Source: Candidatus Latescibacterota bacterium | GTDB lineage: Bacteria; Latescibacterota; UBA2968 | Assembly (NCBI GenBank): GCA_965220765.1 | Contig: OZ244847.1 | Location: 640,646-704,645 of the forward strand | Reading direction: 5' to 3' | Length of the DNA stretch: 64,000 nucleotides | The notes under the pieces: model-generated | What the model was told of the DNA's origin: nothing | Database searches by the model: none | What the model saw: only the letters and a program-made list of their open reading frames with translations | Translations under genes and position numbers: made by a program | Shown here: piece after piece, positions 25,204 through 64,000 of the stretch | Position numbering within the stretch: position 1 is the stretch's first letter | Layout: the number at the start of each line of letters is the position of its first letter

Positions 25204-25214
25204 CTTCCTGTAAA

Positions 25215-40612: not shown

Positions 40613-40613
40613 C

Positions 40614-41090: not shown

Positions 41091-41235
41091 ATAGACCTCG
41101 GGTGAAAGCGTCGGGGACGGTTCCTGCGCCGTCCTCAGCAGTCATCAGGCACCCATCCTACAGGAAAGGCACAGAAAACCCACTCGTTCGCTCGAATGGG
41201 GTGGATATGCGAACTGTTTTATTTAATATTTTTTA

Positions 41236-41616: not shown

Positions 41617-41621
41617 TTTTG

Positions 41622-45211: not shown

Positions 45212-45243
45212 CTGCCGTATAGATTGGTGTATAAAAAGACAAT

Positions 45244-45978: not shown

Positions 45979-45981
45979 TTC

Positions 45982-47250: not shown

Positions 47251-47255
47251 ACCTC

Positions 47256-49456: not shown

Positions 49457-49459
49457 GTG

Positions 49460-50536
49460 CTACTGACCACTTAGCATCCTGTAGATTGATCTTAAAATTT
49501 GTTCTTCATCATCCGCAATGCGGAGAAACTGATCCTGCAAGTCGGTCAATATTTTATCATCCTTTGTCATATAAATTCTGGTGAATGACCGGGCAATGAG
49601 CATCCATTGTTTTGATATGGATTCCCACTGGTGTTCTATGCGATGAAGATCAGAGGTACAACCTTCCACTTTTAAGCCAGAACAGACAGCCATAAATTCC
49701 GATCTTTCCTGGTTCAACATAAGTGCTTCGCTACAGGCTTTTCTCGCTTGTCGCTCAAGCACATCTGGAGATTCTTGAATCCACAAAGGAAGAGCGGCTG
49801 CAAAGTTGCGAATGCCTTGCGGCCCTGCAATAACAGATAATGGCGGCAAATCTCGAGATGACTGGTTTCTTAAATATTTCCAATAGACCTTTTGAATGAG
49901 CCGCTTTAGTTTTTTTGATGAATAGAGATTGTTCTCAACTTTGTTTTTTAACAACCGAATCAGGGTTTTAGTCTCAGGGATACGACAACTCTCTGGCACA
50001 TGAAAATCATGGAATTGTTTATGGGCCAAATGGCTCCCTACAAACTCAATGGGCATCCATTGAAAAGGCCGCGCACCATTACTCACCATCAGAATAGTGT
50101 CTCGGGCATCATCAATACCACATCCAACATAAGTCGCGTGATCAGAACCATCATCGGAATAGCTGTTGCGATTTTTTGCTGCAATCCACAATAGCAATGG
50201 CCGGTTATTCTGTATTAAAATAGTGATGTGTTTGCGAAACTCTGAAGGGGTTGAGCAGATAATTGGTTCTATTCGCACATTGAAAAGCTCACGCAAATTA
50301 TGGAATACACGCCCCCGGGTATAAGCATGACGAAAGGTATTTGAGGTAGGAAAGTGCCAAAAAGACCATCCCAACTTGAGCAACTCAAAAGTTTGTAAAT
50401 TTTCAAAAAGCGGATCATGATAGGCCAAAATATTCATGACATGCCCAATGCAAAACATATACTGATTGCCAGCGGTTCCATCAGGCCCGGGGTATGGTTT
50501 TACTCTGTCTATTATACAGTTCATTTTATTATGCAA
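49460..50536 (-). CDS. hypothetical protein (possibly BtrH_N/DUF4872-like papain-fold acyltransferase)
   Basis: 358 aa. Weak resemblance only. Confidence 0.3.
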   Translation of the reverse strand: MHNKMNCIIDRVKPYPGPDGTAGNQYMFCIGHVMNILAYHDPLFENLQTFELLKLGWSFWHFPTSNTFRHAYTRGRVFHNLRELFNVRIEPIICSTPSEFRKHITILIQNNRPLLLWIAAKNRNSYSDDGSDHATYVGCGIDDARDTILMVSNGARPFQWMPIEFVGSHLAHKQFHDFHVPESCRIPETKTLIRLLKNKVENNLYSSKKLKRLIQKVYWKYLRNQSSRDLPPLSVIAGPQGIRNFAAALPLWIQESPDVLERQARKACSEALMLNQERSEFMAVCSGLKVEGCTSDLHRIEHQWESISKQWMLIARSFTRIYMTKDDKILTDLQDQFLRIADDEEQILRSIYRMLSGQ

Positions 50537-50578
50537 TCATCATGCGTATGAGAAAAAAATCTGGTGATCAATGTGAGA

Positions 50579-51238
50579 CTATTCTCTGTTTTTAGGAAAC
50601 TCAGGAGTGAAAATAAATTTCACATAAATGTAGGCAATGATTTCGCCTATAATCGACCTGAACCCTGCACTTGAATCATACCAGTAATCGGGATCGTAGT
50701 TATAGGGAGGAACAGCTATAACGCCTACTTTTGACACGCCATCAAGAGCGATTTTAAATAAAATAAACGAGCGCCGGGCATGATGACCTCTGGTAACTAT
50801 ATCAACTTTTTTTTCTTTTTGATTCGCATCGCGTAGCCAGTGACGAAGTCCTAATGCGGAATTGAAAGTACGATCTCGTTCAAACTTCCCATTCGGCATG
50901 TCGCGAACGGCCACCTTGACAAGATCAGGATCAATTTGCCATTCTGAGACAAGAACCTTCGCAGTGTTATAGGCAAAATGACCTCCCGTCACCACTATCT
51001 GAGCGTATTTGCCAGTTCTGTAAATTTGTAATGCTGATCTGAGTTCTTCGGCGTGCAACCATCCCTCTACTACCATAATGTCGCCATGTAACGGTTTGCT
51101 TATCGCAAAAAAGGGATATGCATAGATAGCAATGACTCCGCTTCCCAAAAAAATAAAAATCAAAAAAATGGTCGCTTGCTTAAATACTTTGTACAAAATC
51201 GTCCTGAAAATTCTCTTAAACTTATTATTCATAATCAT
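50579..51238 (-). CDS. DUF218 (YdcF/SanA/ElyC-like) membrane-anchored protein
   Basis: 219 aa. N-terminal transmembrane helix. VVTGGHFAYN core resembles the DUF218 VVSGG motif. Confidence 0.65.
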   Translation of the reverse strand: MIMNNKFKRIFRTILYKVFKQATIFLIFIFLGSGVIAIYAYPFFAISKPLHGDIMVVEGWLHAEELRSALQIYRTGKYAQIVVTGGHFAYNTAKVLVSEWQIDPDLVKVAVRDMPNGKFERDRTFNSALGLRHWLRDANQKEKKVDIVTRGHHARRSFILFKIALDGVSKVGVIAVPPYNYDPDYWYDSSAGFRSIIGEIIAYIYVKFIFTPEFPKNRE

Positions 51239-51310
51239 CTCATTTGGGATTTATTGACGTTGGTGAGTGGTCATACGATGTATTTCACCACGAACAGAAT
51301 TGATTAATCC

Positions 51311-51385
51311 CACATTCCCATAAACTTGAGCTTTGAACTGCTGCCTACCGCCGACACGCGACTTGCCAGGGTCTGTCAGTGGATT
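51311..51385 (+). repeat. repeat module copy 1 (5'-truncated)
   Basis: cacattccca-taaacttgagctttgaactgctg-cctaccgccgacacgcgacttgccagggtctgtcagtgg, shared with copies at 54.2, 60.0 and 63.4 kb. Confidence 0.8.
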
Positions 51386-51400
51386 TTGTCTGGGAATACT

Positions 51401-51871
51401 TTACGAAAGTCCCACACTTCTTCGAGAAGAAAAAAGAAAATGGTCGAGAGAAACAGGTGTAGATTTGAAAAAAAACAAAAAATAACAGCAGAGTAAGAAG
51501 ACCAAATCCTGGAGCAACGCGACATACAAACTGGTTTCATTGAACCCAAAACAACCACAGGCGATGTCTGCACCGCGGAGAATATTAATGCCCACTGCTG
51601 CTGCAAATATTAAAAAAAGACCAAAGCTACTGAGCACAGCACTCTTGTGCCACAAACCGAGAAATAAAAATAAACCTGTCACAAGCTCAATCCAGGGCAA
51701 GAAGATCCCCCATAGCACGACCAATCCCTCAGGGAGCAAATTGTAGGCTTTAACAATTTTAATAAATGCTTCGGGATTACGGATTTTTACAATTCCAGCC
51801 CACCCCAGAATAACTCCCAGAAATATCCTGGCCACGGTTCCTGCCCATGCTATTTTGGGAGATAGAATCAT
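51401..51871 (-). CDS. MauE/DoxX-family membrane protein
   Basis: 156 aa, 4 transmembrane helices. Conserved CGCFG pair of cysteines typical of MauE-like proteins. Overlaps the rhodanese gene by 4 bp. Confidence 0.6.
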   Translation of the reverse strand: MILSPKIAWAGTVARIFLGVILGWAGIVKIRNPEAFIKIVKAYNLLPEGLVVLWGIFLPWIELVTGLFLFLGLWHKSAVLSSFGLFLIFAAAVGINILRGADIACGCFGFNETSLYVALLQDLVFLLCCYFLFFFKSTPVSLDHFLFSSRRSVGLS

Positions 51872-52362
51872 CTGTCAAAACCAGTTTGAATCGGATTTAC
51901 TCCCTTTACCCATTCCTCCCATCCGCCTTCAAAAACTTGAACATGTATAAATCCAAATTTCCTTTTTAGAGATCTCGCCAATTCGACACTGGTATTACAA
52001 TTTATGCCAGAACAATAGACAATTATTGGGGTCTCGCGGGCGACATCAGCCAAAAGCTGCTTGGAGAAATAATCGTGCTGAATATACGGTATGTTCACTG
52101 CCCCTAAAATATGGCCTTTTTGATAGGCAGATTCAGAACGTCCATCAATGAGTAATATTTTTGATTTCGATTGAATTATATTTCGAAGCACCTCTAAAGA
52201 GAGATATGTTATATCACCTTTTTGTTGAGAGGTTTCAGCTTCACTCAACAGAAGCTGCTCGCTAAAAATGACAGTATAAATCAATCCTGCGCCTATTCCC
52301 AAAATTTGGATGACCAATGCACGCAAGAGGACTAACTTATAATTGTAGAATCCCACACTCAC
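51868..52362 (-). CDS. membrane-anchored rhodanese-domain protein
   Basis: 164 aa. N-terminal transmembrane helix. ..IIVYCSGINCNTS active-site Cys loop. Confidence 0.8.
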   Translation of the reverse strand: MSVGFYNYKLVLLRALVIQILGIGAGLIYTVIFSEQLLLSEAETSQQKGDITYLSLEVLRNIIQSKSKILLIDGRSESAYQKGHILGAVNIPYIQHDYFSKQLLADVARETPIIVYCSGINCNTSVELARSLKRKFGFIHVQVFEGGWEEWVKGVNPIQTGFDR

Positions 52363-52374
52363 CGGCTGCGTTCC

Positions 52375-54144
52375 TTATGCGATAAGTTGCTTGCGAAAAA
52401 GATGCCAATAGTGTCCTTTCCTCTTCACCAACTCGCCATGGAGTCCTTGCTCAACCACTCTGCCCCCATCCAAACAAATAACCTCATCTACCTGCTGGAT
52501 GGTGCTGAGTCTGTGGCTAATCACAATCAGGGTCTTATCTTCATATAGATCCTGTAAATTTGCTATAATTTTACCTTCGCTTTCAGAATCCAGTGCCGAT
52601 GTTGCTTCGTCAAGGATCAGAATATCCGAGTTTTTCAAAATTGCACGCGCAATCGCAATACGTTGTCTTTGACCAGCCGAAAGCGTGTTACCACGATCAC
52701 CGATAAGCGTAAGCACCCCATCTTCAGACTTCTCAATAAATCCATCCAAACCAGTTAGCCTGATCGCTTGATTGACCTCTTCGGGTGTACTTTTGGGCTT
52801 GCTGTACCGGATATTGTTCCAGATCGTATCATGAAAAACTTGATTTTCCTGGGTTACCAGACCAATATGCTCTCTCAGATCATACAGCTTGATATTGGTA
52901 ATCGGTGTGTGATCAATCGCAATCTCACCTGTATCGGATTCGTAAAAGCGACACAGCAAATTGACTAATGAACTCTTGCCACAACCGCTTGACCCCACCA
53001 GAGCATATTTTTTCCCTTTCTCAAGTCTTAAACTGAAGTCCTGCAAAACGGGTTGTCCGTTATATCCGAAATTGAGGTTGGTAAACGCAATCTCCTTTTG
53101 AAAAGAAAACGGACTGGTGGCAGACCCATCTGCTGTTTTCTGAATATCAATCTCGAGAAACTCGAATACCCGCTTCATTGAAACAGATACACGGACGAGT
53201 TCTACATAAAGCTGATTGAGATTTCTAAATGGTTCAAAAAGACGCGACAGGTACTGCAAAAAAGCAACCAATGCCCCCAGGCTCATGGCCCCCAACATGA
53301 CTTTATGGCCTCCCCATCCCAAAATGAGTGCCGGAGTCAATGACGTTAACAATCTCGAAATCGATCTCATCGCTCCAGAGTAGGTTACATTTTGCATACT
53401 GATATCCATGAGACCATTTAGCTGTGACCGCAGTCTATTATTTTCATAATTATAGGCATTATAGACTTGAATCAATTGGATAGACTCGAATCGCTCAATC
53501 AAATAGCTCATGACTTCAGAGCCTTTCTTTCGCCCGCGTTCCGTAATATCTCTTATTTTGGGCTGGAAGTAGCGAATATTGAGTGCCAGAAAGGGTATGA
53601 CAATAATAGAAACCAAAAATAGCTGCCAGTTTAACCAGCACAGAGCCACAGTAAGCCCTATGAGTGTCAGCAAGCTATGTATAAGACTCAAAGCACTTGA
53701 AGTAATAAACGACTGTATCCGATCCACTTCGTTGCTCATTCGATAGACCACATCTCCAGATTTATTGCGATCATAAAAGCTCAATGGCAACTGGATCAAG
53801 TGATCAAAAAGATGGCTTCTTATATCCAGCATAATGCGATTGTTTATATAGGCAAATAAATAGTTTGAACAAAAACTAATGATGATATTCCCTACCGTAA
53901 CACCCAATAGCAGAAGTAAAATCCATATCAATAGTTCATAGTCTTCGTTTGGAAACACGTCATCAATGATAATTTTCATGATATAAGGGAAGGCCAGCGA
54001 GCTAATAGTCCCTAAAATCATGAGCACGAAAACAACGCTTTGATGTATCCAATAAGGTTTCAGAAATTTTAAAAAATGATAAAAGACATGTCTCTGCTTA
54101 GAGAGACTGAAAATGGCGGATATGACTTGTTGTTTGTCCTTCAT
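52375..54144 (-). CDS. ABC exporter, fused permease/ATP-binding protein (ABCB-type half transporter)
   Basis: 590 aa from MKDKQQ. 6-transmembrane-helix domain, then Walker A GSSGCGKSS, signature LSAGQRQR and Walker B ILILDEATSALD. The longer ORF to 54354 reads through the repeat element and is rejected as the start. Confidence 0.9.
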   Translation of the reverse strand: MKDKQQVISAIFSLSKQRHVFYHFLKFLKPYWIHQSVVFVLMILGTISSLAFPYIMKIIIDDVFPNEDYELLIWILLLLLGVTVGNIIISFCSNYLFAYINNRIMLDIRSHLFDHLIQLPLSFYDRNKSGDVVYRMSNEVDRIQSFITSSALSLIHSLLTLIGLTVALCWLNWQLFLVSIIVIPFLALNIRYFQPKIRDITERGRKKGSEVMSYLIERFESIQLIQVYNAYNYENNRLRSQLNGLMDISMQNVTYSGAMRSISRLLTSLTPALILGWGGHKVMLGAMSLGALVAFLQYLSRLFEPFRNLNQLYVELVRVSVSMKRVFEFLEIDIQKTADGSATSPFSFQKEIAFTNLNFGYNGQPVLQDFSLRLEKGKKYALVGSSGCGKSSLVNLLCRFYESDTGEIAIDHTPITNIKLYDLREHIGLVTQENQVFHDTIWNNIRYSKPKSTPEEVNQAIRLTGLDGFIEKSEDGVLTLIGDRGNTLSAGQRQRIAIARAILKNSDILILDEATSALDSESEGKIIANLQDLYEDKTLIVISHRLSTIQQVDEVICLDGGRVVEQGLHGELVKRKGHYWHLFRKQLIA

Positions 54145-54192
54145 ATTCACCCGTGATGTAAGCAACTTAAAGTGTGCGTGTGGAATAAGACA

Positions 54193-54368
54193 CACCTTAC
54201 TCGATAAGCTCAAGTAAACTATTCTCTCAAGCTCACATTCCCAAATGCTTGAACTTTGAACTGCTGCCTGCCCGCGCCGTCGCCTGTCCGCATGCAGGTG
54301 TTCCGCACAGGCAGGCACGGCAGGCAGGTCTGCCGCCGACATTCGACTTGCCAAGGTCTGTCGGCAAC
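54193..54368 (+). repeat. repeat module copy 2 (with a roughly 60-bp GC-rich insertion)
   Basis: ccttactcgataagctcaagtaaa...ctcaagctcacattcccaaatgcttgaactttgaactgctg-[60-bp insert]-ctgccgccgacattcgacttgccaaggtctgtcggcaac. Confidence 0.8.
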
Positions 54369-54407
54369 TTCGTTATACAGAAACGCTCGAATACGACTTG
54401 ACTTTCT

Positions 54408-55514
54408 TCACTGTCCGGTAGAGGCTCCTTGGGGTTCAGTTAGACGATAGACACGAATCCTGCCATTGGTATCTTCGCCATCCTCAGGAGGCGAATACGC
54501 ATATATAGAATTCCCATGGCAAGTAAAAATATTGTACCCCAATTCATTCTTCACTTCCTGTGCATAAGGCTGCACATCCAAATCCGATAAAAGTATAAGT
54601 GCAGTACTCATTGATAAATCCTCAAAAGTGTACCTGAGCAAAATATCTCCCGAAGACAAGATATGCATGCCGTACAACCTGCTGAACCTATGTTGGGATA
54701 ATTGTCTTATATCTTTGCTATCATCTACTTCATCTAACTTGAGACTGACAAATTTGGGATGATTTGTGACTATGGGTGTAAGAAACTCCTGTGCTGTCAA
54801 ATCAATTCGCATAACTTTATCTTCCCAAGGCAGCGCAAAGTATATGATTTTTCGCACTTCGTCATAAGCAAGCCCTTGGTAACGCTGCAAACCAAAAAAT
54901 AGTTTTCCGTATTGTGTATCGCAGACCTTGAACTTTGCGAGGTCGTCACCAGTGTCAAGGGAAGTGACGCAAAGCATACCGTTTTTGTTTTTATCTACAT
55001 AAGTATGAATGAGATTATGACCATCGGAAACCGCCAAGCGATTAATAAAGCGTCTCTCAGATAGCTCTACTTTCCCTACAAATTCACCTTTGAGTGAAAA
55101 TCGAAGCGTCTGTCCGGTTCCTCCATCGTAGATTAGTATTTGGTCGGTATTGGGGATAGTCGTTGGGTGAGTCGGTATCTTGTACTGGCCTTCTCCTTCC
55201 CCCCGACTGCCAATAGACCGCTTATAGCTTCCCTCTCTGCCAAAAACTTCGACACTTTTTCTCATAGTATCTAAAATAATGATGTAGTCCTCCACAACCA
55301 CAATAGATCCGACACGCCCGAGAAACGGTCCCGCCTCTGGGTGTTCGAGGGTAATAACATCAATCAATGCGATCTGGGGGGGGGGGCCTTGTGTTTGCAC
55401 CTTAGGGACGACCCTATCGAGCTGGTTTTCAACAGTACTTTTTTCGCAACTTCCAAAAATAAGAAAGAGGAGTGTCAGCCACCTCGCGGAAACCAATAAC
55501 TTTTTTTTATTCAT
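54408..55514 (-). CDS. beta-propeller lipoprotein (6-bladed-propeller-like) carrying a 12-nt homopolymeric tract
   Basis: 368 aa. Lipobox LIFGSC. Repeated blade-like segments. A G12 run on the plus strand at 55376-55387 encodes the PPP of ..QGPPPQIA... Confidence 0.5.
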   Translation of the reverse strand: MNKKKLLVSARWLTLLFLIFGSCEKSTVENQLDRVVPKVQTQGPPPQIALIDVITLEHPEAGPFLGRVGSIVVVEDYIIILDTMRKSVEVFGREGSYKRSIGSRGEGEGQYKIPTHPTTIPNTDQILIYDGGTGQTLRFSLKGEFVGKVELSERRFINRLAVSDGHNLIHTYVDKNKNGMLCVTSLDTGDDLAKFKVCDTQYGKLFFGLQRYQGLAYDEVRKIIYFALPWEDKVMRIDLTAQEFLTPIVTNHPKFVSLKLDEVDDSKDIRQLSQHRFSRLYGMHILSSGDILLRYTFEDLSMSTALILLSDLDVQPYAQEVKNELGYNIFTCHGNSIYAYSPPEDGEDTNGRIRVYRLTEPQGASTGQ

Positions 55515-55540
55515 CGGTTTTAATCCTTTTCTATTTGGGC

Positions 55541-56498
55541 TCGATATTCCTGAGAAGTTGTTTTAAAAATGGATCGTTTAATCGAGTCTGTTGAGTAAGA
55601 GGTAAATCATAACAATGTGAATAAAGGCTTCACTATTGTCAGTCAAGTCTTCATAATCCTTTGACAGACGGCGAAAATTTAATAACCAAGCAAAGGTGCG
55701 CTCAACGACCCAACGGCGCTTGGCGACCTGGAAGCCCTCACCTTTAGGCTTAACAACCTCAAGATCAATTTTATACGTGCGCTTCCTATCAGCGACCCAT
55801 TCCTTGAGGTCATCGCCGCGATAGCCGCCATCAACCCACAGCTTGCGTAAGCGTGTTGTTCCTTGCTCAAAATACTGATTCAGCAGATGCTTGAGGCCGT
55901 CACGATCTTGGAGATTGGCAGGCGAGACAAAGGCGTTGATCACCAGGCCGAGGGTATCGACAAACAGGTGGCGTTTGCGTCCATTGACCTTTTTGCCAGC
56001 ATCGTAACCTTTTGAGTCTTTTTGTGTTGCACTCTTGACACTTTGACTGTCAATGCAGCCTGCTGATGCGGTAGCTTTGCGTCCTTGTCGTTTTCTCTCT
56101 TTTCGTGTGAGTGCTTGTTGCATACGCTCAAAGACACTTTGCTCGCGCCACTTATTGAAATAGCCATACACGGTTTGCCAGCAGCCAAAGGTATGAGGCA
56201 ACATGCGCCATTGGCAGCCCGTCTTCGTCAGATACAGGATGCCATCAAACACGTTCCGCAAATTGACAGGGGGACGTCCACGGCTACCTTTTCGCCATTT
56301 GCGCTTGGGCAGGAGTGGGATGAGCAGTTGCCATTGCGCTTCGGTTACATTTGTCGGATATTGCCGGTGCGTATTCATCGCAGGTCCTTTCGTTTCAGGG
56401 TGATATGCACTACCTGAATTTGGACAGATGAATACGCTTTTTCAACGCTTTTTTTCTTCTTTCATAATTTTAAAACAGCTTCTGAGGATTTACCGAGA
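55541..56498. mobile_element. IS5-family insertion sequence (about 0.96 kb) with about 25-30-bp imperfect terminal inverted repeats
   Basis: Left end tcgatattcctgagaagttgttttaaaaatgg. Right end reverse-complement tcggtaaatcctcagaagctgttttaaaattatg. Single transposase ORF inside. Confidence 0.75.
55578..56378 (-). CDS. IS5-family DDE transposase
   Basis: 266 aa. DDE_Tnp_1-like motifs CIDSQSV (D), FVDTLGL (D), VVERTFAWL (E). N-terminal helix-turn-helix. Confidence 0.85.
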   Translation of the reverse strand: MNTHRQYPTNVTEAQWQLLIPLLPKRKWRKGSRGRPPVNLRNVFDGILYLTKTGCQWRMLPHTFGCWQTVYGYFNKWREQSVFERMQQALTRKERKRQGRKATASAGCIDSQSVKSATQKDSKGYDAGKKVNGRKRHLFVDTLGLVINAFVSPANLQDRDGLKHLLNQYFEQGTTRLRKLWVDGGYRGDDLKEWVADRKRTYKIDLEVVKPKGEGFQVAKRRWVVERTFAWLLNFRRLSKDYEDLTDNSEAFIHIVMIYLLLNRLD

Positions 56499-56574
56499 AT
56501 ACCGAGCTAAACTGGAGTACATCAAGTGCGATAGCACATTTTTTACAACTCCTTGCACTTAAGTTGAGTTTACA

Positions 56575-59052
56575 TCAGTCCTCTTGAAGGGCATCTATTG
56601 GACTTTCAGAGGCGACCTTGAACGCATGTATGAAGCCACCTATCAGCGGAAGAAGAATGCCTAAGAAGATTGCTACCAAAATCGTGCCAACACCAAATTG
56701 AAAGCGGTAGGCAAATATTGAGAGCCATTCATCCATAAAGAAATAGGAGAGCGGAAGCATGATGATGGCGGCGATAAATCCAGGTACTGCGTAGTTCAGC
56801 ACAATCCCACTGGCTATTTTGGAGGGCACAGCCCCCATGACCCTTCGGATGACGATTTCCTTTCTTCTGCGTGCCACGGCGAGGGAGATCATGCCCAGGG
56901 CACCCATTGACGCGATCAGGACAGCACACAAAGTCGCGCCAGAGACGATCTTGCTCCAACTGATTTCTCGGGCATAAAAGTGTCGCCTGTCATCTTCTAC
57001 AAAGGAAAATGTCAGGTGATGCTCCGTTTTGAGGTCTTGCCATAGTTCCTTGAGAAACGCACTAAATGCTTTGGCATTGCCATCTTGAAGCCGAATCAAT
57101 ATTTCACGGTCTTGTCGCTTGGTTGTTGCACCATCTGGGACAATCGTGATGATAGTCGGTGGGACCTTGTGGTGTGAACTTTGGAAGCGAAAATCCTTGA
57201 CTATACCTACAATACGGCCACTGACATCGCGACCAAACACGGGTCTTCTGAACTTTGTATCCGCCTGCGTGATCACCTGTCCAAGAGGCTGTGGTGATGT
57301 CAGGTGTTTTTGCAAGGCTTCATTCACGATTACATCGCCCGGGATAGGATTTGGATGTAAGGCTCTTCCTTGTAAGAGTTGCAACCCGACGGTCTTCAGA
57401 AAAGGGCCATCTACCTGATAATAGTTTACATTATCAATGAGTTTGTTACCGCTGTCTTTGATTAGAGTTGAGTTTGACGAATTTAGAGACAGATTCGTCC
57501 GAACAGAGGATGTCACGAGAGGAGACGCTGATAAAGACGCTTGCAGACGATCAATCTCATTTTCTGTCAACCCACTGGTATTGAGTCTGACCAGGTTCGC
57601 GGGTTCAAACCCTGGATCTGCTGTGATGACGAAAAAGGTCTGTTCAAAGATAATGATCGTGCAAAATACAAACACCAATGTCACACCCGACTGTACAGCC
57701 ATCAGTACCTTCAAAAAAGGACCAGACCTGACGGCCTTTGAGGTTTTGCTCAAAACGCTGATGGCAGACACAGACGACATAAATGTCGCCGGGTAAATGG
57801 CTGTGACCAGACCTATTAGACAGGCAAGTGATAGGAAAATGATCGCGGTCTGAATAGGATCTACCGAAGACATAAAAGGGATCCGCAAAATGCCTTCAAT
57901 AGGACTTGAGGCCAACTCTGCGACTGCCAGACTTATGATGCAGGCCAAAATGCTGTATCCAAAGCATTCGGCCAATAGCTGGTATCTGAGTTGCCGTCGG
58001 TTCGCGCCAAAGATTTGCCTGATGCCCAATTCTTTTGTACGCGAGTTGAACCGCGCTACATAAAGAAGCACGTAATTCAAACACGCGATAAACAGAACCA
58101 ATATACTGATACCGGCGAGAATATATCCATATAAGGGATTTGTTTTGCGAAACATACCATCAACAAATAGACCGATATAATGGTGCAGGTCTGTGAGGGA
58201 TTGCAATTTGGCCTGAAAGGTCTCTAAGTCCCATATTGAGTTGATAGAGGACTGCTTCTGCATGAACGTAGTGAGCTTTCTGTCCATTTCTTCCACATTT
58301 GATCTGTCTGCCAAACGGATGTAATGTGTGGATTCAAAGCCCCAGTCCCATTGTCCTTCTTCATTATCGAGAAAGGTCGTGGACATACTCAAGGGCAAAA
58401 GAATCTCGAAATATAAGCTCGAATTACGTGGAGGAGCCACGATGCCCCCGATTTCAACAGGGGCTACTACGGGTTTTATATCTCTCAAAAATCTGCGAGA
58501 AGCAACTCGCATCCATAACACTTTGCCTATCAAGTTGTCAATATCGTTGGTAAGCGTCTGAGCAAATCTACGTGTGATCACGACTTGCCCAGGGCGAGAG
58601 AAGAATGTACCGCGAATAAGGGGGAAGGAAAACATCTCTTCAAAACTTCTATCGACGAACAAGACATGTTGGATAGGTCGCAAAAACTCTTTGTGAGTAC
58701 CTACCTGGCAGGTCGCTGTCCCAATGACACTCTTTACACGGGTTGTATGCTCAATCTCAGGAAATTCAGCAGCCACCATGGAGGATAGTGCAACAGGAAA
58801 ACTGGCGGTCTCTGTCCATGTGCCCGCCAACGGTGTCCCTCTTATTGTTTTTTCATACTTGACCTTTCCGACAACGCAGTATATGCGATGATGGTCTTTG
58901 TGGAATCTATCAAAGCTCCAATCGTACAGGAAGTAAAGCACGCAGAGATAGCAGCAGGCAATTCCTATCCCCAAACCCAGCAGATTAATGGCTGCATACG
59001 TTTTATACTTGAGGATATTGCGAAACCATGTTCGGAAGTAATTGGCAATCAT
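56575..59052 (-). CDS. FtsX-domain ABC-transporter permease (MacB-like, two FtsX repeats)
   Basis: 825 aa. An N-terminal transmembrane helix, a large periplasmic domain and 3 transmembrane helices, repeated twice. No adjacent cognate ATPase gene. Confidence 0.8.
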   Translation of the reverse strand: MIANYFRTWFRNILKYKTYAAINLLGLGIGIACCYLCVLYFLYDWSFDRFHKDHHRIYCVVGKVKYEKTIRGTPLAGTWTETASFPVALSSMVAAEFPEIEHTTRVKSVIGTATCQVGTHKEFLRPIQHVLFVDRSFEEMFSFPLIRGTFFSRPGQVVITRRFAQTLTNDIDNLIGKVLWMRVASRRFLRDIKPVVAPVEIGGIVAPPRNSSLYFEILLPLSMSTTFLDNEEGQWDWGFESTHYIRLADRSNVEEMDRKLTTFMQKQSSINSIWDLETFQAKLQSLTDLHHYIGLFVDGMFRKTNPLYGYILAGISILVLFIACLNYVLLYVARFNSRTKELGIRQIFGANRRQLRYQLLAECFGYSILACIISLAVAELASSPIEGILRIPFMSSVDPIQTAIIFLSLACLIGLVTAIYPATFMSSVSAISVLSKTSKAVRSGPFLKVLMAVQSGVTLVFVFCTIIIFEQTFFVITADPGFEPANLVRLNTSGLTENEIDRLQASLSASPLVTSSVRTNLSLNSSNSTLIKDSGNKLIDNVNYYQVDGPFLKTVGLQLLQGRALHPNPIPGDVIVNEALQKHLTSPQPLGQVITQADTKFRRPVFGRDVSGRIVGIVKDFRFQSSHHKVPPTIITIVPDGATTKRQDREILIRLQDGNAKAFSAFLKELWQDLKTEHHLTFSFVEDDRRHFYAREISWSKIVSGATLCAVLIASMGALGMISLAVARRRKEIVIRRVMGAVPSKIASGIVLNYAVPGFIAAIIMLPLSYFFMDEWLSIFAYRFQFGVGTILVAIFLGILLPLIGGFIHAFKVASESPIDALQED

Positions 59053-59666
59053 CGGTCATCCATATTTTGTTAATAGCGGTGTGGATAAAAAACCGTGCCA
59101 TAGTCGGTAACCTTCGCTACTCAAATAATCACACATTTTCCCTGTCTTGGATGTTATGAGGAAGAGTGTTGAAGTTTTTGACAGCGTAAAATCAGTGTTA
59201 TCGGTAAATAGGCCGATAACACGAGGTTGTGCCTATATTAGTTGAAATAGTAGAGGTCCCAATGTAAATTGGATACAGCAGTTTCAACCGTGAAAACGCT
59301 ATATCCTCAACCAAAGGGGCCCGTAATCTGCCTGTGCGTTGCACGCAGACAGGTGAATAAAATATCGCACAAGCCCCCAAAGTCAAATCCACAAAGACGA
59401 TGCAACGCCACAAACACCCCCTGAAGAAGAACTGGACACACTGAATACACGCATCGCGCCAAGCCTTGATCCCAATAGGATTAGATGCCGTGGCAGAAGA
59501 ATTACAGCAGGAAGTGACCCGCTTAGCCGGGGACAGATATGGACTTGACCCGATAACACCGAACTAAATTTGAGCCTACCAAGAGGGTTGCACACTTTGC
59601 TTTTTTAAAGGGGCATATAGAAATGCTCTATTTTAATGAACTATCTCAAGTGAGACAATCATTGTA

Positions 59667-59900
59667 TCAGCATGGTCCCCAAGTTTTTCTCGTACTATAT
59701 GCCTCCTCTGATCTACATTCGTAATAAGGAAAATACTCCCGGCACTCATAGTAAGTGGTTATGGTCACACACCTAACCGGATCTCCAACAGTCTCTCTTA
59801 TACGACCCGTCTCAATCCAGATACCCCAGTCGTGCCACTCATATCCATAAATACGTGGAGAAGACAGCGGAGACTTCTCAGGCTTGGTCAAGATCTTCAT
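59667..59900 (-). CDS. small Cys/aromatic-rich peptide (candidate precursor peptide)
   Basis: 77 aa. Strong RBS AAAGGAAAGGAGGTG 7 nt before the ATG. Four Cys. Internal YYEC..YYEC repeat. Repeat module copy 3 lies immediately upstream. Confidence 0.45.
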   Translation of the reverse strand: MKILTKPEKSPLSSPRIYGYEWHDWGIWIETGRIRETVGDPVRCVTITTYYECREYFPYYECRSEEAYSTRKTWGPC

Positions 59901-59946
59901 AATATCACCTCCTTTCCTTTTGGGTCAAGTAAAAGTGTGCTTGCCC

Positions 59947-60085
59947 TTACTTGATAGGCTCAAGTTCAAGTAAAACCATTCTCTCCCGCTCACATTTTCC
60001 AAATGTTTGAGCTTTGAACTGCTGTGGTAACCCGCCCTTGGGAGCTACCGCCGACACTTGACTTGCCATGGTATGTCGGCGGCTA
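59947..60085 (+). repeat. repeat module copy 3
   Basis: cttacttgataggctcaagttcaagtaaaaccattctctcccgctcacattttccaaatgtttgagctttgaactgctg-tggtaacccgcccttgggagcta-ccgccgacacttgacttgccatggtatgtcggcgg. Confidence 0.8.
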
Positions 60086-60128
60086 TTATATCAACACTTT
60101 TGCCATGGCTACATCTTGTTCATAAATA

Positions 60129-60851
60129 TCAATAAACAAATGTAGATAAAGGATCTATCTCAAATTTCTTGGCAATAATTCGAGAATAGGGCACCCCTTT
60201 AAGATGACCGTTTAGAAGTGGTTTTTGTAAACGCAAATGTTTTTGAATCACACCAAAAAAGAGGACTGTGTTTTGAGGGCGGTCTTTTGAAGGCAAATGA
60301 CAATGCGTTATGATATTCTTTTCATTGACAACAAAGACCGCTGGCGTGCGATGGGTGAGTACTTTATTCTGGAATAGCATGTTCTCAGTATCCGAAAGCA
60401 ACTCGTAATGCAGATTAAAACTTCTTTTGTATCTTTTCAACACGCCCGCAGGAGCATTGGCAAACGCATAAATTGGAAAGCGTTTTTCGGGGTCCTGGCT
60501 CTGGTACACATGCTCCAGTAACTTTATCTGGGTGATTAGACAGGGCTGACAGTCTTGAGGCTTGAAGACGAGAACCAATCCTTTTCCTGTTTTAGAAAAA
60601 TCCGTTGAAATCCAATCGCCATTTATATTCTTCAATTTCAACTTCGGAAATTCTTGCCCTTGATAATTGGAGGCATAAGTAGAAGTGTTTATATGCTCCT
60701 TGTAATCAGCATTCTCTATTCGGAGACCTCTGATTTCTTCCCAACGACGAGCGTTCGTATTTCTCAACTTCCATACCCCAAATAACGCAACAAAAAGAAA
60801 AACAGATAGCAGGATATTTAAAATCAGCGATATTTTGCGAATTTCTTGCAT
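60129..60851 (-). CDS. membrane-anchored TlpA/ResA-like thiol-disulfide oxidoreductase (thioredoxin fold, CxxC)
   Basis: 240 aa. N-terminal transmembrane helix. VLVFKPQDCQPCLITQ active-site CQPC. Confidence 0.7.
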   Translation of the reverse strand: MQEIRKISLILNILLSVFLFVALFGVWKLRNTNARRWEEIRGLRIENADYKEHINTSTYASNYQGQEFPKLKLKNINGDWISTDFSKTGKGLVLVFKPQDCQPCLITQIKLLEHVYQSQDPEKRFPIYAFANAPAGVLKRYKRSFNLHYELLSDTENMLFQNKVLTHRTPAVFVVNEKNIITHCHLPSKDRPQNTVLFFGVIQKHLRLQKPLLNGHLKGVPYSRIIAKKFEIDPLSTFVY

Positions 60852-60882
60852 TTACTTTCTCCGCATCGTTAAGGTATTGATC

Positions 60883-62799
60883 TCAAAAAAAATCAACAAC
60901 AACATCGGCCATCTTTTTTTGTCCTTCTACGCTGATTATCTCAGTGGCTGGAAGGCCCTGCGTTGATTCTATGCGCGATGTGATTTGGCAAATTTCCGCT
61001 TTAGAGAGCGGCTGGTTGACGACTGTATTAACCGTGTCATTAACAATTTTTTTCTTATCACTAAAAACGAGCAGAATAACTTTTCCTTTTCCCAGGCCCT
61101 CTAACACGCGGATATTTTCCTGTATAAATTCAGGCTCGTCGATAGAATTAACGAGCAGGATATAGGCATCGGGAACGGTTCCAAAGAGCAAGATCAATGA
61201 GGGCAACGTATAACTCTGAGATTTTTCGTAAAAGCTATGAGGTATGATACCGGACTGACCACCAACAATGATGATATCCGGGTCTGAGTGTTCAATGCCG
61301 ACCATAGCGGAATTTAGAAGTGGAATGTGTAAATCTATGGGAATTTGGATGCTCTGATGCCCGTCATATCCATTTGGAAATGTAAAATCGAAATCAAATA
61401 ATGCAGATTGGTGTTCTGTACCCAATTGACCCACTTTATAGCCAATTTTCTGTAATTGTTTTCTCAGTGCCAATTGTGCAGTGAACTTGCCTTGTTGCGG
61501 TCCTGTCCCAAACACGCCCACGACAGGTTTCTGGCTTCTGTTTCTCCAATCATAAGTTTTGGTCAAAGCCTCATAAGTTGCAAAATCAATGGTCGGTGCT
61601 GCACAATGTAGATATTTTTCTTCAAATGCTTTACTTATGCTTTCGTATTGCTTATTTGCAATGGGGCTCAGACTGTAAACATTCTTGTTATGCTTCAATG
61701 CCAGTTTTAGAGATTCTTGTAACACATCGCGTTTCTTAATCCGGCTAATTTCATCCAAATAGCCCAAAACGAGCGTATCGCCGTATTGCAGACAGTCTTC
61801 CAAATTTTGTTGTATGATGAGATCAGATTCGACCCCACCAATAACCTCCCCACAATCTTTGCCTATGGTTCTTTTTCCAACAACGTCAACTACCCTTGCA
61901 ATTCTAAACGGCAATAACTCCTGAAACCGCACCAGCCCATGCATTTCTTTGTTATAGGGGAAAATCACAGCCTTTTCTATCCAGTCTGGCGTATTATTTG
62001 CCTTATTTAGGTCTCGGATAGAAACGTCTGAGCGAGACCTGGGCATTTCGCTCATTGCATAAGCACTGCTATCTACCAACTCGGGACATTGACTTAAGGA
62101 GTGCATCTGCAAAATTTCTGTCAGATCGTTGAAAGTTATGCCATCATATTTCTCTATGATCAGAGCAATCAAGCCAGAAACATGCGGAGCCGCAAAACTC
62201 GATCCGCCCATAAATATCTGTTTGCCTACCAGCCAATCGAGGCGTTGACGATCACCTCGTGCGACAAACTGTATTTTTTCGTGCGGGTCAAAAAAGTAAT
62301 CAAATTTTCCACTCACTTTTCCTCCTGCTACGCCAAAAACATTGGGAAAAGACGCGGGAATACTCGGTTGTCCATCATTTGATGTCGCCGCAACAATGAA
62401 CGTCTGGTGTTTGTGTGCAAAATCACAGGCCTCCTTCAAAATATCGATATTCCTCTCATCCAGAGTGCCTAAACTCAAATTGATAATGTGACAGTGATGT
62501 TCAACACACCAGTAAATCGCCTTGCACAAAATGTCCATTGTCGCTATCAGCTCTGATTCAAAAATTTTGACAGGCAAAAATTCTACATTGGGAGCCTTAG
62601 AGTGGATGACGCCAATACATGCTGTACCGTGGCCTATCATATCCTTGTAATTTGAATCCTGACCGCCATTGCAGAAACTGGTACCATTCAACACATGTAC
62701 ATCTTTGTGGCCGACGTTAAAACCGCTATCAATGACGCCGATCCGAGTCCCAGTACCTGTCAGCCCTGAAAAAAAATGCGCCATCAAAAAACCTTTCAA
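60883..62799 (-). CDS. intracellular S8 subtilisin-like serine peptidase fused to a roughly 400-aa C-terminal domain (possible CoA-binding/Rossmann-like region)
   Basis: 638 aa. Catalytic triad contexts GVIDSGF (D), HGTACIG (H), GGSSFAAPHVSG (S). No signal peptide. C-terminal half contains VVGVFGTGPQQGKFTAQLAL, which is SucD/CoA-binding-like. Confidence 0.8.
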   Translation of the reverse strand: MKGFLMAHFFSGLTGTGTRIGVIDSGFNVGHKDVHVLNGTSFCNGGQDSNYKDMIGHGTACIGVIHSKAPNVEFLPVKIFESELIATMDILCKAIYWCVEHHCHIINLSLGTLDERNIDILKEACDFAHKHQTFIVAATSNDGQPSIPASFPNVFGVAGGKVSGKFDYFFDPHEKIQFVARGDRQRLDWLVGKQIFMGGSSFAAPHVSGLIALIIEKYDGITFNDLTEILQMHSLSQCPELVDSSAYAMSEMPRSRSDVSIRDLNKANNTPDWIEKAVIFPYNKEMHGLVRFQELLPFRIARVVDVVGKRTIGKDCGEVIGGVESDLIIQQNLEDCLQYGDTLVLGYLDEISRIKKRDVLQESLKLALKHNKNVYSLSPIANKQYESISKAFEEKYLHCAAPTIDFATYEALTKTYDWRNRSQKPVVGVFGTGPQQGKFTAQLALRKQLQKIGYKVGQLGTEHQSALFDFDFTFPNGYDGHQSIQIPIDLHIPLLNSAMVGIEHSDPDIIIVGGQSGIIPHSFYEKSQSYTLPSLILLFGTVPDAYILLVNSIDEPEFIQENIRVLEGLGKGKVILLVFSDKKKIVNDTVNTVVNQPLSKAEICQITSRIESTQGLPATEIISVEGQKKMADVVVDFF

Positions 62800-62917
62800 T
62801 ACGCGATGTGTGACTTTAAAATCGCCACAGAATCATGCCGACAAACAGATATAAGAAAGTCAAAACTACTGGATTACTGGCATTGTGCCTTCGCGGCTAA
62901 CATCCTGCCGCAATGAC

Positions 62918-62937
62918 GGGCGAGGCATGCCTCGCCC
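62918..62937. other. perfect GC-rich palindrome downstream of the ACP-like gene
   Basis: gggcgagg-catg-cctcgccc. No adjacent U-tract on the minus strand. Confidence 0.4.
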
Positions 62938-62980
62938 CTACAATGGATAACTGACCACTGATTGCTTGTTTTTTTCACCA

Positions 62981-63280
62981 TTATTCTAAAGTCACACCTG
63001 ACGTCTTTCGATATGTTTCAGTGGTTAATTTCCCATATATATACTGCGCTACCGAACGTGTCGAAGTGAGCATGTCTTCTGTGAGTTCTTCGTCCTCTAC
63101 GACCACGTCAAATGTATCCTCTAAGCCTGTCACCAGGGCCAGGGTGGAAATAGAATCGAGTATAGAATTCAAAGGAAGATTACCCCAATCTACATCATCG
63201 GATGGGACTTCACGGTCTAATGCTCTCAGGACCAGACCTTGAATCTGATTCTCAATCTCAGCTATTGTATTTTCTGTCAT
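62981..63280 (-). CDS. acyl-carrier-protein-like small acidic protein
   Basis: 99 aa, acidic. LPLNSILDSISTLALVTGLE resembles the phosphopantetheine-attachment helix II (DSL..EL) of carrier proteins. Confidence 0.4.
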   Translation of the reverse strand: MTENTIAEIENQIQGLVLRALDREVPSDDVDWGNLPLNSILDSISTLALVTGLEDTFDVVVEDEELTEDMLTSTRSVAQYIYGKLTTETYRKTSGVTLE

Positions 63281-63334
63281 AAAATTTTATATCCGGTTAC
63301 ACGATAGTTGACATCCTATCCCTCAAAAGGTATC

Positions 63335-63426
63335 TTACCATCAAGCTCACATTCCCAAATGCTTGAGCTTTGAACTGCTGTCTGCCGCCGACACTCGACT
63401 TGCCAGGGTCTGTCGGCGGCTTTTTT
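63335..63426 (+). repeat. repeat module copy 4 (most compact; second hairpin followed by T6)
   Basis: cttaccatcaagctcacattcccaaatgcttgagctttgaactgctg-tctgccgccgacactcgacttgccagggtctgtcggcggc-tttttt. Confidence 0.8.
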
Positions 63427-63450
63427 GTGATGTATGTAATATAATTGCCC

Positions 63451-63990
63451 TTATAGTTTCAAGCCCGAAAGTTTGTCCTGACCTGCAAAATTTGTCCCAG
63501 ATTCTACTTTTTTGCGATATGTGGTCGGACTAACGCCATGCTTCTCTTTGAAAAACTTGCTAAAAGTCGATAAAGATGCAAATCCACACAGGTAAGCAAT
63601 TTCTGAAAGGGTATATGATGTGTTCTTCAACGCTTCCTCAGCCTTTGTTAGACGTACATTCCGAAGGCACATCCTGAACGGCATTCCCAGGTGCTTCTTA
63701 AACAATTTATATCCATAGCTTTCCGAGAACCTGAAATGACGTATGACATCTTTAAATTTCAGCTTTGGATTGCTGTAATTCGCCTCCAAAAATGATTCCA
63801 ACCAGATCTTCCACATATCTTGTGGAGGCATATATTTTTTGATCTTCGCCAAAAACACATCTCTCTTGATGGGTTTATCAAATACACTGACAGCACCGGC
63901 CTTGATCAGTTGCTCGCCCAATTCTGCGGATTGCAAATCTGTCATGACCAGCATAGCGGTCTGTATTTTCTCCGCCTTCACACGCTTCAA
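63451..63990 (-). CDS. AraC-family transcriptional regulator, probably with N-terminal receiver domain (5' end outside the window)
   Basis: C-terminal AraC helix-turn-helix (..SEIAYLCGFASLSTFSKFFKEKHGVSPTTYRK). Preceding ..IKAGAVSVFDKPIKRDVFLAKI resembles the end of a REC domain. The ORF runs to the window edge. Confidence 0.8.
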   Translation of the reverse strand: MKRVKAEKIQTAMLVMTDLQSAELGEQLIKAGAVSVFDKPIKRDVFLAKIKKYMPPQDMWKIWLESFLEANYSNPKLKFKDVIRHFRFSESYGYKLFKKHLGMPFRMCLRNVRLTKAEEALKNTSYTLSEIAYLCGFASLSTFSKFFKEKHGVSPTTYRKKVESGTNFAGQDKLSGLKL

Positions 63991-64000
63991 TAGGGTTATT

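Follow-up and report, generated by a model that had tools for sequence, protein, structure and literature searches.

What does a cytoplasmic subtilase do when it is fused to a DUF1611 module and encoded next to an acyl-carrier-like protein? The question is raised by a locus in the window, by which we mean the whole stretch of 64,000 nucleotides of a Candidatus Latescibacterota genome that was analysed. The earlier note had read the pair as acylation or ligation chemistry coupled to proteolysis. As judged from sequence, this general idea is plausible, and the fusion protein is apparently the hallmark enzyme of a gene cluster, widespread but uncharacterised, for the maturation and export of small Cys-rich peptides.

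The protease-DUF1611 fusion and its carrier-like partner

The fusion gene (60883..62799) lies on the reverse strand, as do all other features described here. Its open reading frame is listed from a TTG at 62799, and translation probably starts at the ATG at 62784, which yields a protein of 633 amino acids. A database copy (P0001) is 100% identical to the window protein, has the same length and begins at this ATG. The AF2 model of the full-length protein has a pLDDT of 90.8.

The N-terminal half contains an S8 protease domain (62104..62757), which belongs to the Peptidase_S8 family by its Pfam score (PF00082, E 8.4e-24, 84.8 bits against a cutoff of 21.8) and matches subtilisin BPN' in Foldseek (E 1.6e-14). 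The catalytic Asp (62728-62730, in VIDSG), His (62629-62631, in IGHGT) and Ser (62197-62199, in GSSFA of GSSFAAPH) correspond to D19, H52 and S196. All three are invariant in an alignment of 84 homologues, in which the oxyanion residue N102 is conserved to at least 90%. The N-terminus, MAHFFSGLTGTGTRIGVIDSG, has neither a hydrophobic signal sequence nor a propeptide, and the catalytic Asp is already reached at residue 19. The intact triad and the missing signal peptide described in the earlier note are thereby confirmed, and the domain is predicted to be an intact cytoplasmic S8 subtilase. A secreted subtilase with a PPC-type or β-sandwich tail, the outcome that had been named as speaking against this reading, was not seen in AF2 models and Foldseek searches; the models rule it out by showing an α/β Rossmann-like part and a P-loop part at the C-terminus. 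Among NCBIfam families, QhpE (NF049966) is the top match of the S8 domain (E 8.9e-41, model positions 1-216 of 219), with a score of 139.6 bits that stays below the family cutoff of 165.

The C-terminal DUF1611 module (60886..61977) combines a Rossmann-like N-subdomain, which carries the family motif PYNKEMH, with a P-loop C-subdomain. It spans about 370 residues rather than the roughly 400 estimated before. The profile search that had been proposed as a check gave a match to DUF1611_C above the Pfam cutoff (PF07755, E 6.1e-11, 42.5 bits against 25), which places the module in this family; PF17396 is not reported for the window protein and is precomputed for many homologues. A longer match links residues 275-550 to TIGR04066, a family named 'peptide maturation system protein' (E 5.9e-36, model positions 1-269 of 361). 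At 124.2 bits against a cutoff of 200, the module is best described by sequence as homologous to TIGR04066 and outside the equivalog.

The AF2 model of the module (pLDDT 93.1, pTM 0.92) matches the PDB entries 2g0t, 2obn and 7xrj in Foldseek at E 2.5e-15 to 8e-12 over about 400 aligned columns, and the two-subdomain fold of the solved DUF1611 structures is present in full length. TM0796 (2g0t), Ava_3511 (2obn) and DgcN (7xrj) share this fold (TM-score 0.61-0.72 relative to the target) and a P-loop of the form GT....GK.T. They are only 16-20% identical to the window protein, stand alone and have no protease fusion and no ACP or peptide context, and PYNKEMH, TEH and VGGQSG (for VEGQG) are specific to the fusion family. 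The next Foldseek matches after the DUF1611 structures are cyclic-2,3-DPG synthetase and MurD, which have a P-loop of the ADP-forming ligase type, at low TM-scores of about 0.2.

The Gly-rich segment singled out by the earlier note, VVGVFGTGPQQGKFTAQLAL, is indeed present. Its core, GTGPQQGKFT (61480..61509), is part of the DUF1611_C domain and is modelled between a β-strand and a helix, as a P-loop of the BioD/DUF1611 kind and not as a Rossmann dinucleotide loop. The G, T, Q, G, K and T of the P-loop are invariant in the 84 sequences, in which the motifs GT..QGK.T, TEH, QSG, PD and N..D do not vary either. More than 20 polar residues of the module, including the P-loop Lys (K433), are invariant across sequences that are about 40% identical. 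Sequence conservation and model together suggest that the C-terminal half is a nucleotide- or cofactor-binding enzyme module. ATP hydrolysis is uncertain, because the VEGQG of TM0796 reads VGGQSG in the fusion protein, so that Gly replaces the acidic residue after the Walker-B-like strand.

A 99 amino acid long ACP-like protein is encoded upstream of the fusion gene and on the same strand (62981..63280). It is acidic and carries the DSIS helix noted before. The two genes are separated by about 180-195 nt and do not abut. The putative phosphopantetheine-attachment site is Ser43 (63152..63154, in LDSIS). The window protein scores 18.9 bits against PF00550, just under the cutoff of 20.8, while all 24 family members tested match NCBIfam ACP models (best E 5.7e-18; AsbD in 22 and TIGR04069 in 10). 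The corresponding Ser, at which helix 2 begins, is the same in all 68 family sequences compared, whereas the Asp before it varies. Of the 66 fully flanked loci, 62 have an ACP-like gene, and in 53 it is a direct neighbour in the same orientation. The sequence therefore identifies the 99-aa protein as ACP-like and as a putative carrier.

Fusions of this type are not unusual in frequency, contrary to what had been supposed: over 1,300 proteins have the architecture, and at 50% identity the clusters number about 1,900 (1,944). Genomes of Candidatus Latescibacterota contain several divergent fusion copies each, and many of these genomes are sponge- or coral-associated MAGs. The fusion gene, the ACP gene and the precursor gene described below each occur only once in the window.

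A candidate precursor peptide and the genes around it

An ORF downstream of the fusion gene (59667..59900) encodes a candidate precursor peptide of 77 amino acids with the leader MKILTKPEKSPLSSPRIYGYE and a core of four Cys, in which Cys is also the C-terminal residue. A strong ribosome-binding site, AAAGGAAAGGAGGTGATATT, immediately precedes its ATG. An HMM of the leader retrieves the window ORF with E 2.6e-10, and it finds related ORFs, more than 30 in total, in about 29 loci. The leader (MKxLxKP…YxYE, about 21 residues) is common to several phyla, and leaders of this type are also found in loci of Melioribacteraceae and Bacteroidota that encode a PqqD-rSAM-SPASM maturase. Identity among the precursors is 63% in the leaders versus 22% in the cores, and the cores are hypervariable behind a conserved leader even among loci with enzymes that are about 90% identical. 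These loci have one or two different precursors each, and most cores contain two, four or six Cys, an even number being usual. Small precursors in which the leader is conserved and the core varies, with putative modifying enzymes encoded alongside, are the pattern expected of a RiPP cluster, and the sequences of this family display it.

Several neighbouring genes encode proteins with predicted roles in export and thiol chemistry. A membrane-anchored TlpA/redoxin-like thiol-disulfide oxidoreductase with a CQPC motif (60129..60851; AhpC-TSA E 3.7e-9, Redoxin E 3.1e-8) belongs to a family found in 29 loci. It is accompanied by a rhodanese-domain protein (51868..52362; PF00581 E 1.8e-18), whose family occurs in 21 loci, and by a MauE/DoxX-family membrane protein (51401..51871; PF07291 E 1.8e-25). 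A duplicated permease of the MacB/FtsX type (56575..59052, 825 aa, with FtsX and MacB_PCD matches) is syntenic in close relatives. The ABC exporter (52375..54354) consists of a transmembrane domain and an ATPase and has no C39 peptidase domain; its family is present in 58 loci, and since the relatives have 589-594 amino acids, translation probably begins downstream of the TTG from which the ORF is listed. A six-bladed DUF5128 β-propeller, predicted to be a lipoprotein (54408..55514; PF17170 E 1.6e-12), represents a family seen in at least 24 loci. The precursor peptide, the exporters and the disulfide-handling genes had not been part of the earlier description. This context offers an explanation for the protease/ACP pair.

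At the other end, a response-regulator/AraC-type regulator (63451..63990; HTH_18 E 4.9e-22, with a partial Response_reg match) is cut by the window end; its relatives have 278-286 amino acids, and the gene is syntenic. An Rfam scan of the window gave zero matches. A radical SAM protein is not encoded between 43 and 64 kb of the window and is lacking in 68 of 77 loci (9 have one), which rules it out as an obligatory partner. Acyl-activating or fatty-acid genes are not conserved near the loci.

Membership in the cluster is tentative for a BtrH-like papain-fold protein (49460..50536), because its gene lies about 10 kb from the fusion gene. It matches DUF4872 (E 3.6e-4), BtrH_N (E 0.01) and an HMM of the locus-associated BtrHb family (E 5.9e-7). 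In the alignment, its Cys29 occupies the position at which the nucleophile is presumed, and two conserved columns contain His133 and Asp142. The protein may act as a carrier-protein-dependent transacylase. BtrH-like genes are present in 43 of 81 loci, often directly after the ACP gene, and absent from the other 38. A single conserved Cys nucleophile in all locus-associated BtrH-like proteins was not found: many of them, among them many members of the BtrHa family, carry Ser at this position.

Related cassettes and a proposed model of peptide maturation

Several described systems resemble this cluster. In Firmicutes, clusters termed 'sactipeptide-like' in Roseburia and Paenibacillus contain TIGR04066, TIGR04069 and a separate subtilase beside a TIGR04068 (CcpM-type) radical SAM protein, and this cassette has been described bioinformatically only (PMC4573289, PMC10731318). 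The two have in common a DUF1611-related maturation protein and a subtilase, along with a small protein related to ACPs, an ABC exporter and peptides rich in Cys. In contrast to the Firmicutes cassette, the subtilase and the TIGR04066-like module form one polypeptide here, the scores remain below both family cutoffs, and the window has no radical SAM protein. Since the Firmicutes components are separate, the present fusion joins them in a single protein. Membership in QhpE, TIGR04066 or TIGR04069 was rejected, because the proteins are homologous, yet below the cutoffs or matched by a minority of members. By sequence, the window cluster can be regarded as a variant of the TIGR04066/TIGR04069 plus subtilase cassette.

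A further likeness concerns the carrier. A BtrH_N/DUF4872 protein with a small, standalone carrier beside it also occurs in BtrJ/BtrI/BtrH of butirosin, AsbC/AsbD/AsbE of petrobactin and CtaD/CtaE,H/CtaG of closthioamide biosynthesis, and the ACP family described here matches AsbD models. BtrH, AsbE and CtaG are carrier-protein-dependent transacylases that use carrier-bound donors (PMC12865890). Different from the present loci, the carriers in these three systems are loaded by an ATP-grasp or adenylating enzyme and not by a DUF1611 protein, and the acceptors are small molecules or carrier-bound chains instead of ribosomal peptides. CtaG has a Cys nucleophile; at this position the window protein has Cys and many BtrHa-family members have Ser.

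We propose that the fusion protein and the ACP form the core of a RiPP-like peptide-maturation cluster with carrier-protein-dependent chemistry, and to this model as a whole we assign a probability of about 45%. The ribosomally made precursor (59667..59900) would be processed in the cytoplasm, where the S8 domain, with QhpE as its best family match, would cut off the leader. As the exporter comes without a C39 peptidase domain, leader removal calls for a separate peptidase. Together with the adjacent, phosphopantetheinylated carrier, the DUF1611 module would attach an acyl or aminoacyl group to the peptide. In the version that we prefer, DUF1611 would charge the carrier in an ATP- or CoA-dependent reaction, and a papain-fold transacylase of the BtrH/AsbE/CtaG type would then move the group from the carrier to an amine, for which the N-terminus freed by proteolysis is the simplest candidate. 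In this window the transacylase may be the protein at 49460..50536, but its distance of about 10 kb and its weak similarity argue against the model. The product would be exported via the ABC and MacB/FtsX transporters, after which the TlpA-like redoxin, MauE and the rhodanese would oxidise its paired Cys to disulfides in the periplasm.

We consider a more specific version of this model unlikely: S8-DUF1611 and the ACP would define a new class of ribosomal peptides, in which the leader peptidase incorporates a carrier-protein (thiotemplated) step, so that the DUF1611 P-loop charges the ACP and the unit is ligated as the leader is cut. If true, this would provide the first function for DUF1611/TIGR04066 in peptide maturation and a third kind of carrier-loading enzyme, besides adenylating and ATP-grasp enzymes. 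A confirmed carrier-protein-dependent modification would represent a new tailoring logic for ribosomal peptides, and would give access to the disulfide-rich peptides of uncultivated bacteria, a large source that is still unexplored. DUF1611/TIGR04066 and an 'acyl carrier-related' partner have been present in peptide-maturation annotations for years without an assigned chemistry. We found no functional study of such a pair in the literature, including that on Latescibacterota RiPPs and on freyrasin/PapB accessory genes. The window links a DUF1611/TIGR04066-like module to its carrier partner in a very common form, and the precursor family, whose members have a leader in common and Cys-rich cores that are hypervariable, offers a handle for experiments.

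Competing explanations

Within the same cluster, DUF1611 could itself be a DgcN-like acyltransferase that transfers an acyl group from acyl-CoA or acyl-S-ACP to the amine freed by the fused protease; the ACP donor would be loaded by housekeeping metabolism and the BtrH-like proteins would do something else. The structure 7xrj (E 8e-12) is titled N-acetyltransferase DgcN and is the sole characterised DUF1611 structure in the PDB. DgcN, a D-glutamate N-acetyltransferase, is not a ligase, which favours the transferase role. A protease-transferase fusion would moreover couple cleavage with acylation, and this explanation accommodates the retention of the ACP in the 38 of 81 loci that have no BtrH-like gene. 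However, DgcN is related to the fusion protein by fold only, at 16% identity and with no NCBIfam match of the DgcN type, and the D-amino-acid catabolic context of DgcN is replaced here by one of peptide export. In addition, the P-loop and the other invariant polar residues fit nucleotide chemistry as well, and the cluster has no source of acyl groups. We consider a transferase role of DUF1611 distinctly unlikely.

The similarity to QhpE raises the question whether the locus belongs to a QHNDH/MADH-like system, in which the Cys-rich peptide would be the cross-linked small subunit of a periplasmic β-propeller complex and would depend on a QhpE-like protease, a QhpF-like ABC transporter and folding by MauE and a thioredoxin-like protein. 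In QHNDH biogenesis, a small Cys-rich peptide undergoes leader cleavage and then ABC export, a logic that parallels the window cluster. QhpE, the leader peptidase for the quinohemoprotein amine dehydrogenase γ subunit, is likewise a minimal cytoplasmic S8 protein without signal or pro sequences and is the best family match of the S8 domain. Further resemblances are MauE, the AraC-type regulator, which weakly matches QhpR (E 1.6e-10), the recurrence of β-propeller and redoxin in the loci, and rSAM-SPASM proteins in some of them. Nonetheless, this explanation is quite improbable. Enzyme subunits would be conserved, but the cores are 22% identical where the enzymes are about 90% identical; one or two different precursors exist per locus and several divergent copies per genome. 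Unlike the window protein, QhpE has no DUF1611 fusion or ACP partner, and its score is under the cutoff. Haem and dehydrogenase subunits are absent, as is the qhpA/B/C/D/G context: neither dehydrogenase subunits nor QhpD/QhpG were found in the window or its syntenic relatives.

It would be equally surprising if the DUF1611 module and the ACP-like protein were non-catalytic, serving the protease as a leader-binding or scaffold domain and as a chaperone-like acidic protein, respectively, with no carrier chemistry. The NCBI name of the Firmicutes partner is only 'acyl carrier-related', the window ACP is under the Pfam cutoff, and an obvious loading enzyme is missing. Against this, the ACP Ser is invariant next to a variable Asp, and the set of invariant polar residues of the DUF1611 module, P-loop Lys included, is a typical active-site pattern at this level of divergence.

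We give next to no credence to a protease fused to a CoA-binding or ligase domain of the SucD/NDP-forming acyl-CoA-synthetase type, as the earlier note had suggested: the N-subdomain is Rossmann-like and weakly similar to DapB_N and amine dehydrogenases, but CoA_binding, Succ_CoA_lig and ATP-grasp are not matched in Pfam at E<=0.1, neither SucD nor ACD is among the top 50 Foldseek PDB matches, and the Gly-rich segment belongs, as described above, to a P-loop. The homologue DgcN reportedly uses acetyl-CoA, which would indirectly support the 'CoA-like' intuition behind that suggestion.

The subtilase-DUF1611 fusion family

The reported fusion enzyme is confirmed. It is encoded on the minus strand (60883..62799), and its identical database copy, P0001, starts with the ATG at 62784, resulting in a protein of 633 aa. 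Its N-terminal 230 residues comprise a Peptidase_S8 domain (PF00082, E 8.4e-24, 84.8 bits versus a cutoff of 21.8) with the catalytic Asp in VIDSG, the His in IGHGT and the Ser in GSSFA. This triad is invariant across an alignment of 84 sequences, most of which are only ~40% identical to the window protein. Because the protein starts with MAHFFSGLTGTGTRIGVIDSG, both a signal peptide and a propeptide are absent, and the S8 half is a minimal cytoplasmic subtilase, as the earlier note had correctly described it. Among curated families, it is closest to QhpE (E 8.9e-41), which acts as leader peptidase on the quinohemoprotein amine dehydrogenase gamma subunit; its score of 139.6 falls short of the 165 set for that family.

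The C-terminal module contains GTGPQQGKFT (61480..61509), the core of a segment that had been likened to SucD and acyl-CoA synthetases. Profile searches identify it as a P-loop that belongs to a DUF1611_C domain (PF07755, E 6.1e-11, over cutoff), and residues 275-550 match TIGR04066, the NCBIfam "peptide maturation system protein" (E 5.9e-36, under cutoff). AlphaFold2 provided confident models of the full protein (pLDDT 90.8) and of the C-terminal 379 residues alone (pLDDT 93.1, pTM 0.92). In Foldseek searches against the PDB, the modelled module groups with three solved DUF1611 proteins, i.e., TM0796 (2g0t, E 2.5e-15), Ava_3511 (2obn) and the N-acetyltransferase DgcN (7xrj, E 8e-12), over ~400 aligned columns and with target-relative TM-scores of 0.61-0.72. 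The P-loop ligase-type cyclic 2,3-diphosphoglycerate synthetase and MurD rank next with much lower TM-scores, which also applies to matches of the N-subdomain to Rossmann-type enzymes, such as DapB and amine dehydrogenases. More than 20 polar residues are invariant family-wide, including PYNKEMH, which stands where a dinucleotide-binding loop would be, the P-loop Lys, TEH, QSG, PD and N..D. This conservation suggests that the module is an active enzyme. As a caveat, TM0796 carries an acidic residue after its Walker-B-like strand (VEGQG), whereas the fusion enzyme has Gly at this position (VGGQSG).

The proposal of an enzymatic C-terminal half agrees with the DUF1611 fold, the confident models and the invariant polar residues, and a beta-sandwich or PPC-type tail, which the earlier note itself had named as refuting its reading, is not what is present. 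The SucD/acyl-CoA synthetase assignment is wrong as to the family and is supported by neither profiles nor folds: the CoA_binding, Succ_CoA_lig and ATP-grasp profiles gave nothing at E<=0.1 against the fusion enzyme, and the top 50 Foldseek PDB matches contain no SucD or ACD.

The architecture had been considered unusual, but a word-indexed protein search retrieved 1,338 matches at E<=1e-5, and PF00082 and PF07755 occur together in nearly all of the best 120 of these. When only the C-terminal module was used as a profile, 1,944 clusters at 50% identity were recovered, with 725 at E<=1e-30. Proteins of 590-680 aa with the module at the C-terminus make up most of them, indicating that they are fused. 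With these numbers, the fusion is a large family and not a rarity, mostly annotated just as "S8 family serine peptidase". When one genome per species was scanned, the closest relatives (~90% identity) came from Candidatus Latescibacterota MAGs. Two or three divergent copies are encoded on several complete Latescibacterota chromosomes, and the family is further seen in Gemmatimonadota, KSB1, Melioribacteraceae, Bacteroidota and one Bacillota MAG.

Carrier protein, candidate precursor peptides and neighboring genes

Upstream of the fusion gene, a minus-strand ORF (62981..63280) encodes an acidic 99 aa protein with an LDSIS motif, which scores slightly below the PF00550 cutoff. Homologous small ORFs were pulled from 77 related loci; among the 66 loci with at least 3 kb on either side, 62 contain a member, and in 53 it sits directly beside the fusion gene in the same orientation. 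All 68 sequences retain the Ser, while the preceding residue varies (D, N, S, H), and general ACP models match all 24 members tested (best E 5.7e-18). The suspected carrier protein is well supported, and its sequence predicts a bona fide carrier-protein fold with a putative attachment Ser. The ~180 nt spacer between both genes (62800..62980) holds a GC-rich palindrome, GGGGCGAGGCATGCCTCGCCC, at about 62915-62936, and may have arisen by insertion of a repeat element or may act as an attenuator; in two related loci (L003, L004) the gap is just 12 nt.

The window and its close relatives share a minus-strand gene order: a response-regulator/AraC regulator, the ACP, the fusion enzyme, a membrane-anchored TlpA-like redoxin (CQPC), a small ORF, a MacB/FtsX permease, a DUF5128 beta-propeller lipoprotein, an ABC exporter that lacks a C39 peptidase domain, a rhodanese and MauE. 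The small ORF (59667..59900, minus strand) is a candidate precursor of 77 aa with a strong ribosome-binding site, AAAGGAAAGGAGGTGATATT, immediately 5' of its ATG. It consists of MKILTKPEKSPLSSPRIYGYE and a core of 56 residues, four of which are Cys. This leader is common to 13 such ORFs of close loci, in which mean identity is 63% for the leader versus 22% for the core, with adjacent enzymes being ~90% identical. The precursors of other paralogous loci form separate groups that follow the same leader plan, MKxLxKP…(A/G)Y(E/D). In Melioribacteraceae and Bacteroidota, the precursors are 127-137 aa long, consist of MKPLKKPIKPLNY…VYLYES and a very Cys-rich core, and adjoin a radical SAM gene; the Latescibacterota member of that radical SAM family (L010) combines PqqD, radical-SAM and SPASM domains. 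Precursors of this family can now be recognized. A combined leader HMM detects >30 precursors across ~29 loci and exactly one within the window.

The conserved leader and the hypervariable core, in combination with a dedicated peptidase and exporters, constitute a RiPP or bacteriocin-type cluster signature. The number of Cys per core is nearly always 2, 4 or 6, usually with a Cys within 3 residues of the C-terminus (e.g., L029:5975-6109, L045:6699-6923, L042:12920-13147, L001:6512-6895). These even counts and the set of redoxin, MauE and rhodanese suggest periplasmic disulfide formation in the peptide. Some cores end with CC, CCC or CCCCG, and some loci encode Rce1-like CAAX proteases beside TPR proteins with weak matches to prenyltransferase alpha repeats.

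The radical SAM gene is missing from the window and from 68/77 loci, is variably present even among 90%-identical relatives, and is dispensable. A second recurrent neighbor is a BtrH_N/DUF4872 protein (43/81 loci), often directly after the ACP gene; the window's member (49460..50536, minus strand) is weak. Between ACP and BtrH-like genes, 12 loci (L026, L032, L043, L045, L047, L048, L056, L065 and others; e.g., L056:8018-8662) encode a conserved ~214 aa protein (family f25) with no match in Pfam, and in L021, L022, L040 and L051 the ACP is followed by GT28-like genes. Upstream of the ACP gene, 90%-identical relatives differ: some carry a PqqD-rSAM-SPASM maturase with DUF354 and UDP-glucose-dehydrogenase-like genes (L005, L010), L007 has a sulfotransferase, and the window, L002-L004 and L012 contain the regulator alone, which indicates that tailoring genes are gained and lost in a modular fashion.

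Possible chemistry

The interest of the locus rests in its chemistry. Firmicutes clusters with a TIGR04068 radical SAM protein, TIGR04066, a TIGR04069 ACP-related protein, a subtilase and an ABC transporter have been reported by genome mining, with chemistry assigned in neither study (PMC4573289, PMC10731318). The cassette was previously known from annotation only; new here are the fusion of the subtilase to a DUF1611/TIGR04066-like module and the optional radical SAM. In Firmicutes, subtilase and TIGR04066 are separate proteins, whereas their union in a single chain is evidence that the two act together. BtrH, AsbE and CtaG are papain-fold transacylases with carrier-protein-bound donors (PMC12865890), and their pathways use a loader enzyme to charge the carrier. 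As the DUF1611 module is the sole conserved loader candidate with a nucleotide-binding fold in these loci, we favor a mechanism in which the S8 domain would remove the leader, the DUF1611 module would charge the ACP, and the carried group would be passed to the peptide, the freshly exposed N-terminus being the simplest acceptor. Proteolysis may be coupled with acyl chemistry, as the earlier note had suggested. The main rival is that the DUF1611 module might itself be a DgcN-like acyltransferase using an acyl thioester as donor. Purely structural roles of DUF1611 and ACP are hard to reconcile with the invariant ACP Ser and the invariant P-loop. A QHNDH/MADH-like system, in which the small Cys-rich peptide is a subunit of a propeller enzyme, would fit the QhpE-like, QhpR-like, MauE, propeller and ABC export components, but both the hypervariable cores and the presence of multiple divergent copies contradict this reading.

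Surrounding sequence

Over ~43500..64000, GC falls from ~0.50 to ~0.41 and all genes are on the minus strand; this block, which looks like an island, contains a methyltransferase, DUF354, sugar transferases, GT4s, DUF4915, the BtrH-like gene and DUF218, and then the peptide cluster. Its glycosyltransferases might belong to the peptide pathway, in view of the GT28-like genes after the ACP in other loci. An IS5-family insertion sequence (55548..56488) with 21-nt inverted repeats and a minus-strand transposase ORF (55578..56378; NF033580, E 5e-75) lies between the FtsX permease and beta-propeller genes. It is absent there in syntenic relatives, indicating a recent insertion within the cluster. 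An Rfam scan of the whole 64-kb window gave zero matches. Positions 1..43000 contain housekeeping and unrelated genes, including a TonB-dependent receptor (30..3167), a heparinase II/III-like gene (7526..10531), GroEL (16544..18169), SecA (19095..22313) and an Mrp antiporter subunit (33707..35392), and strong GC and AT skew extends across 4-12 kb of the window.
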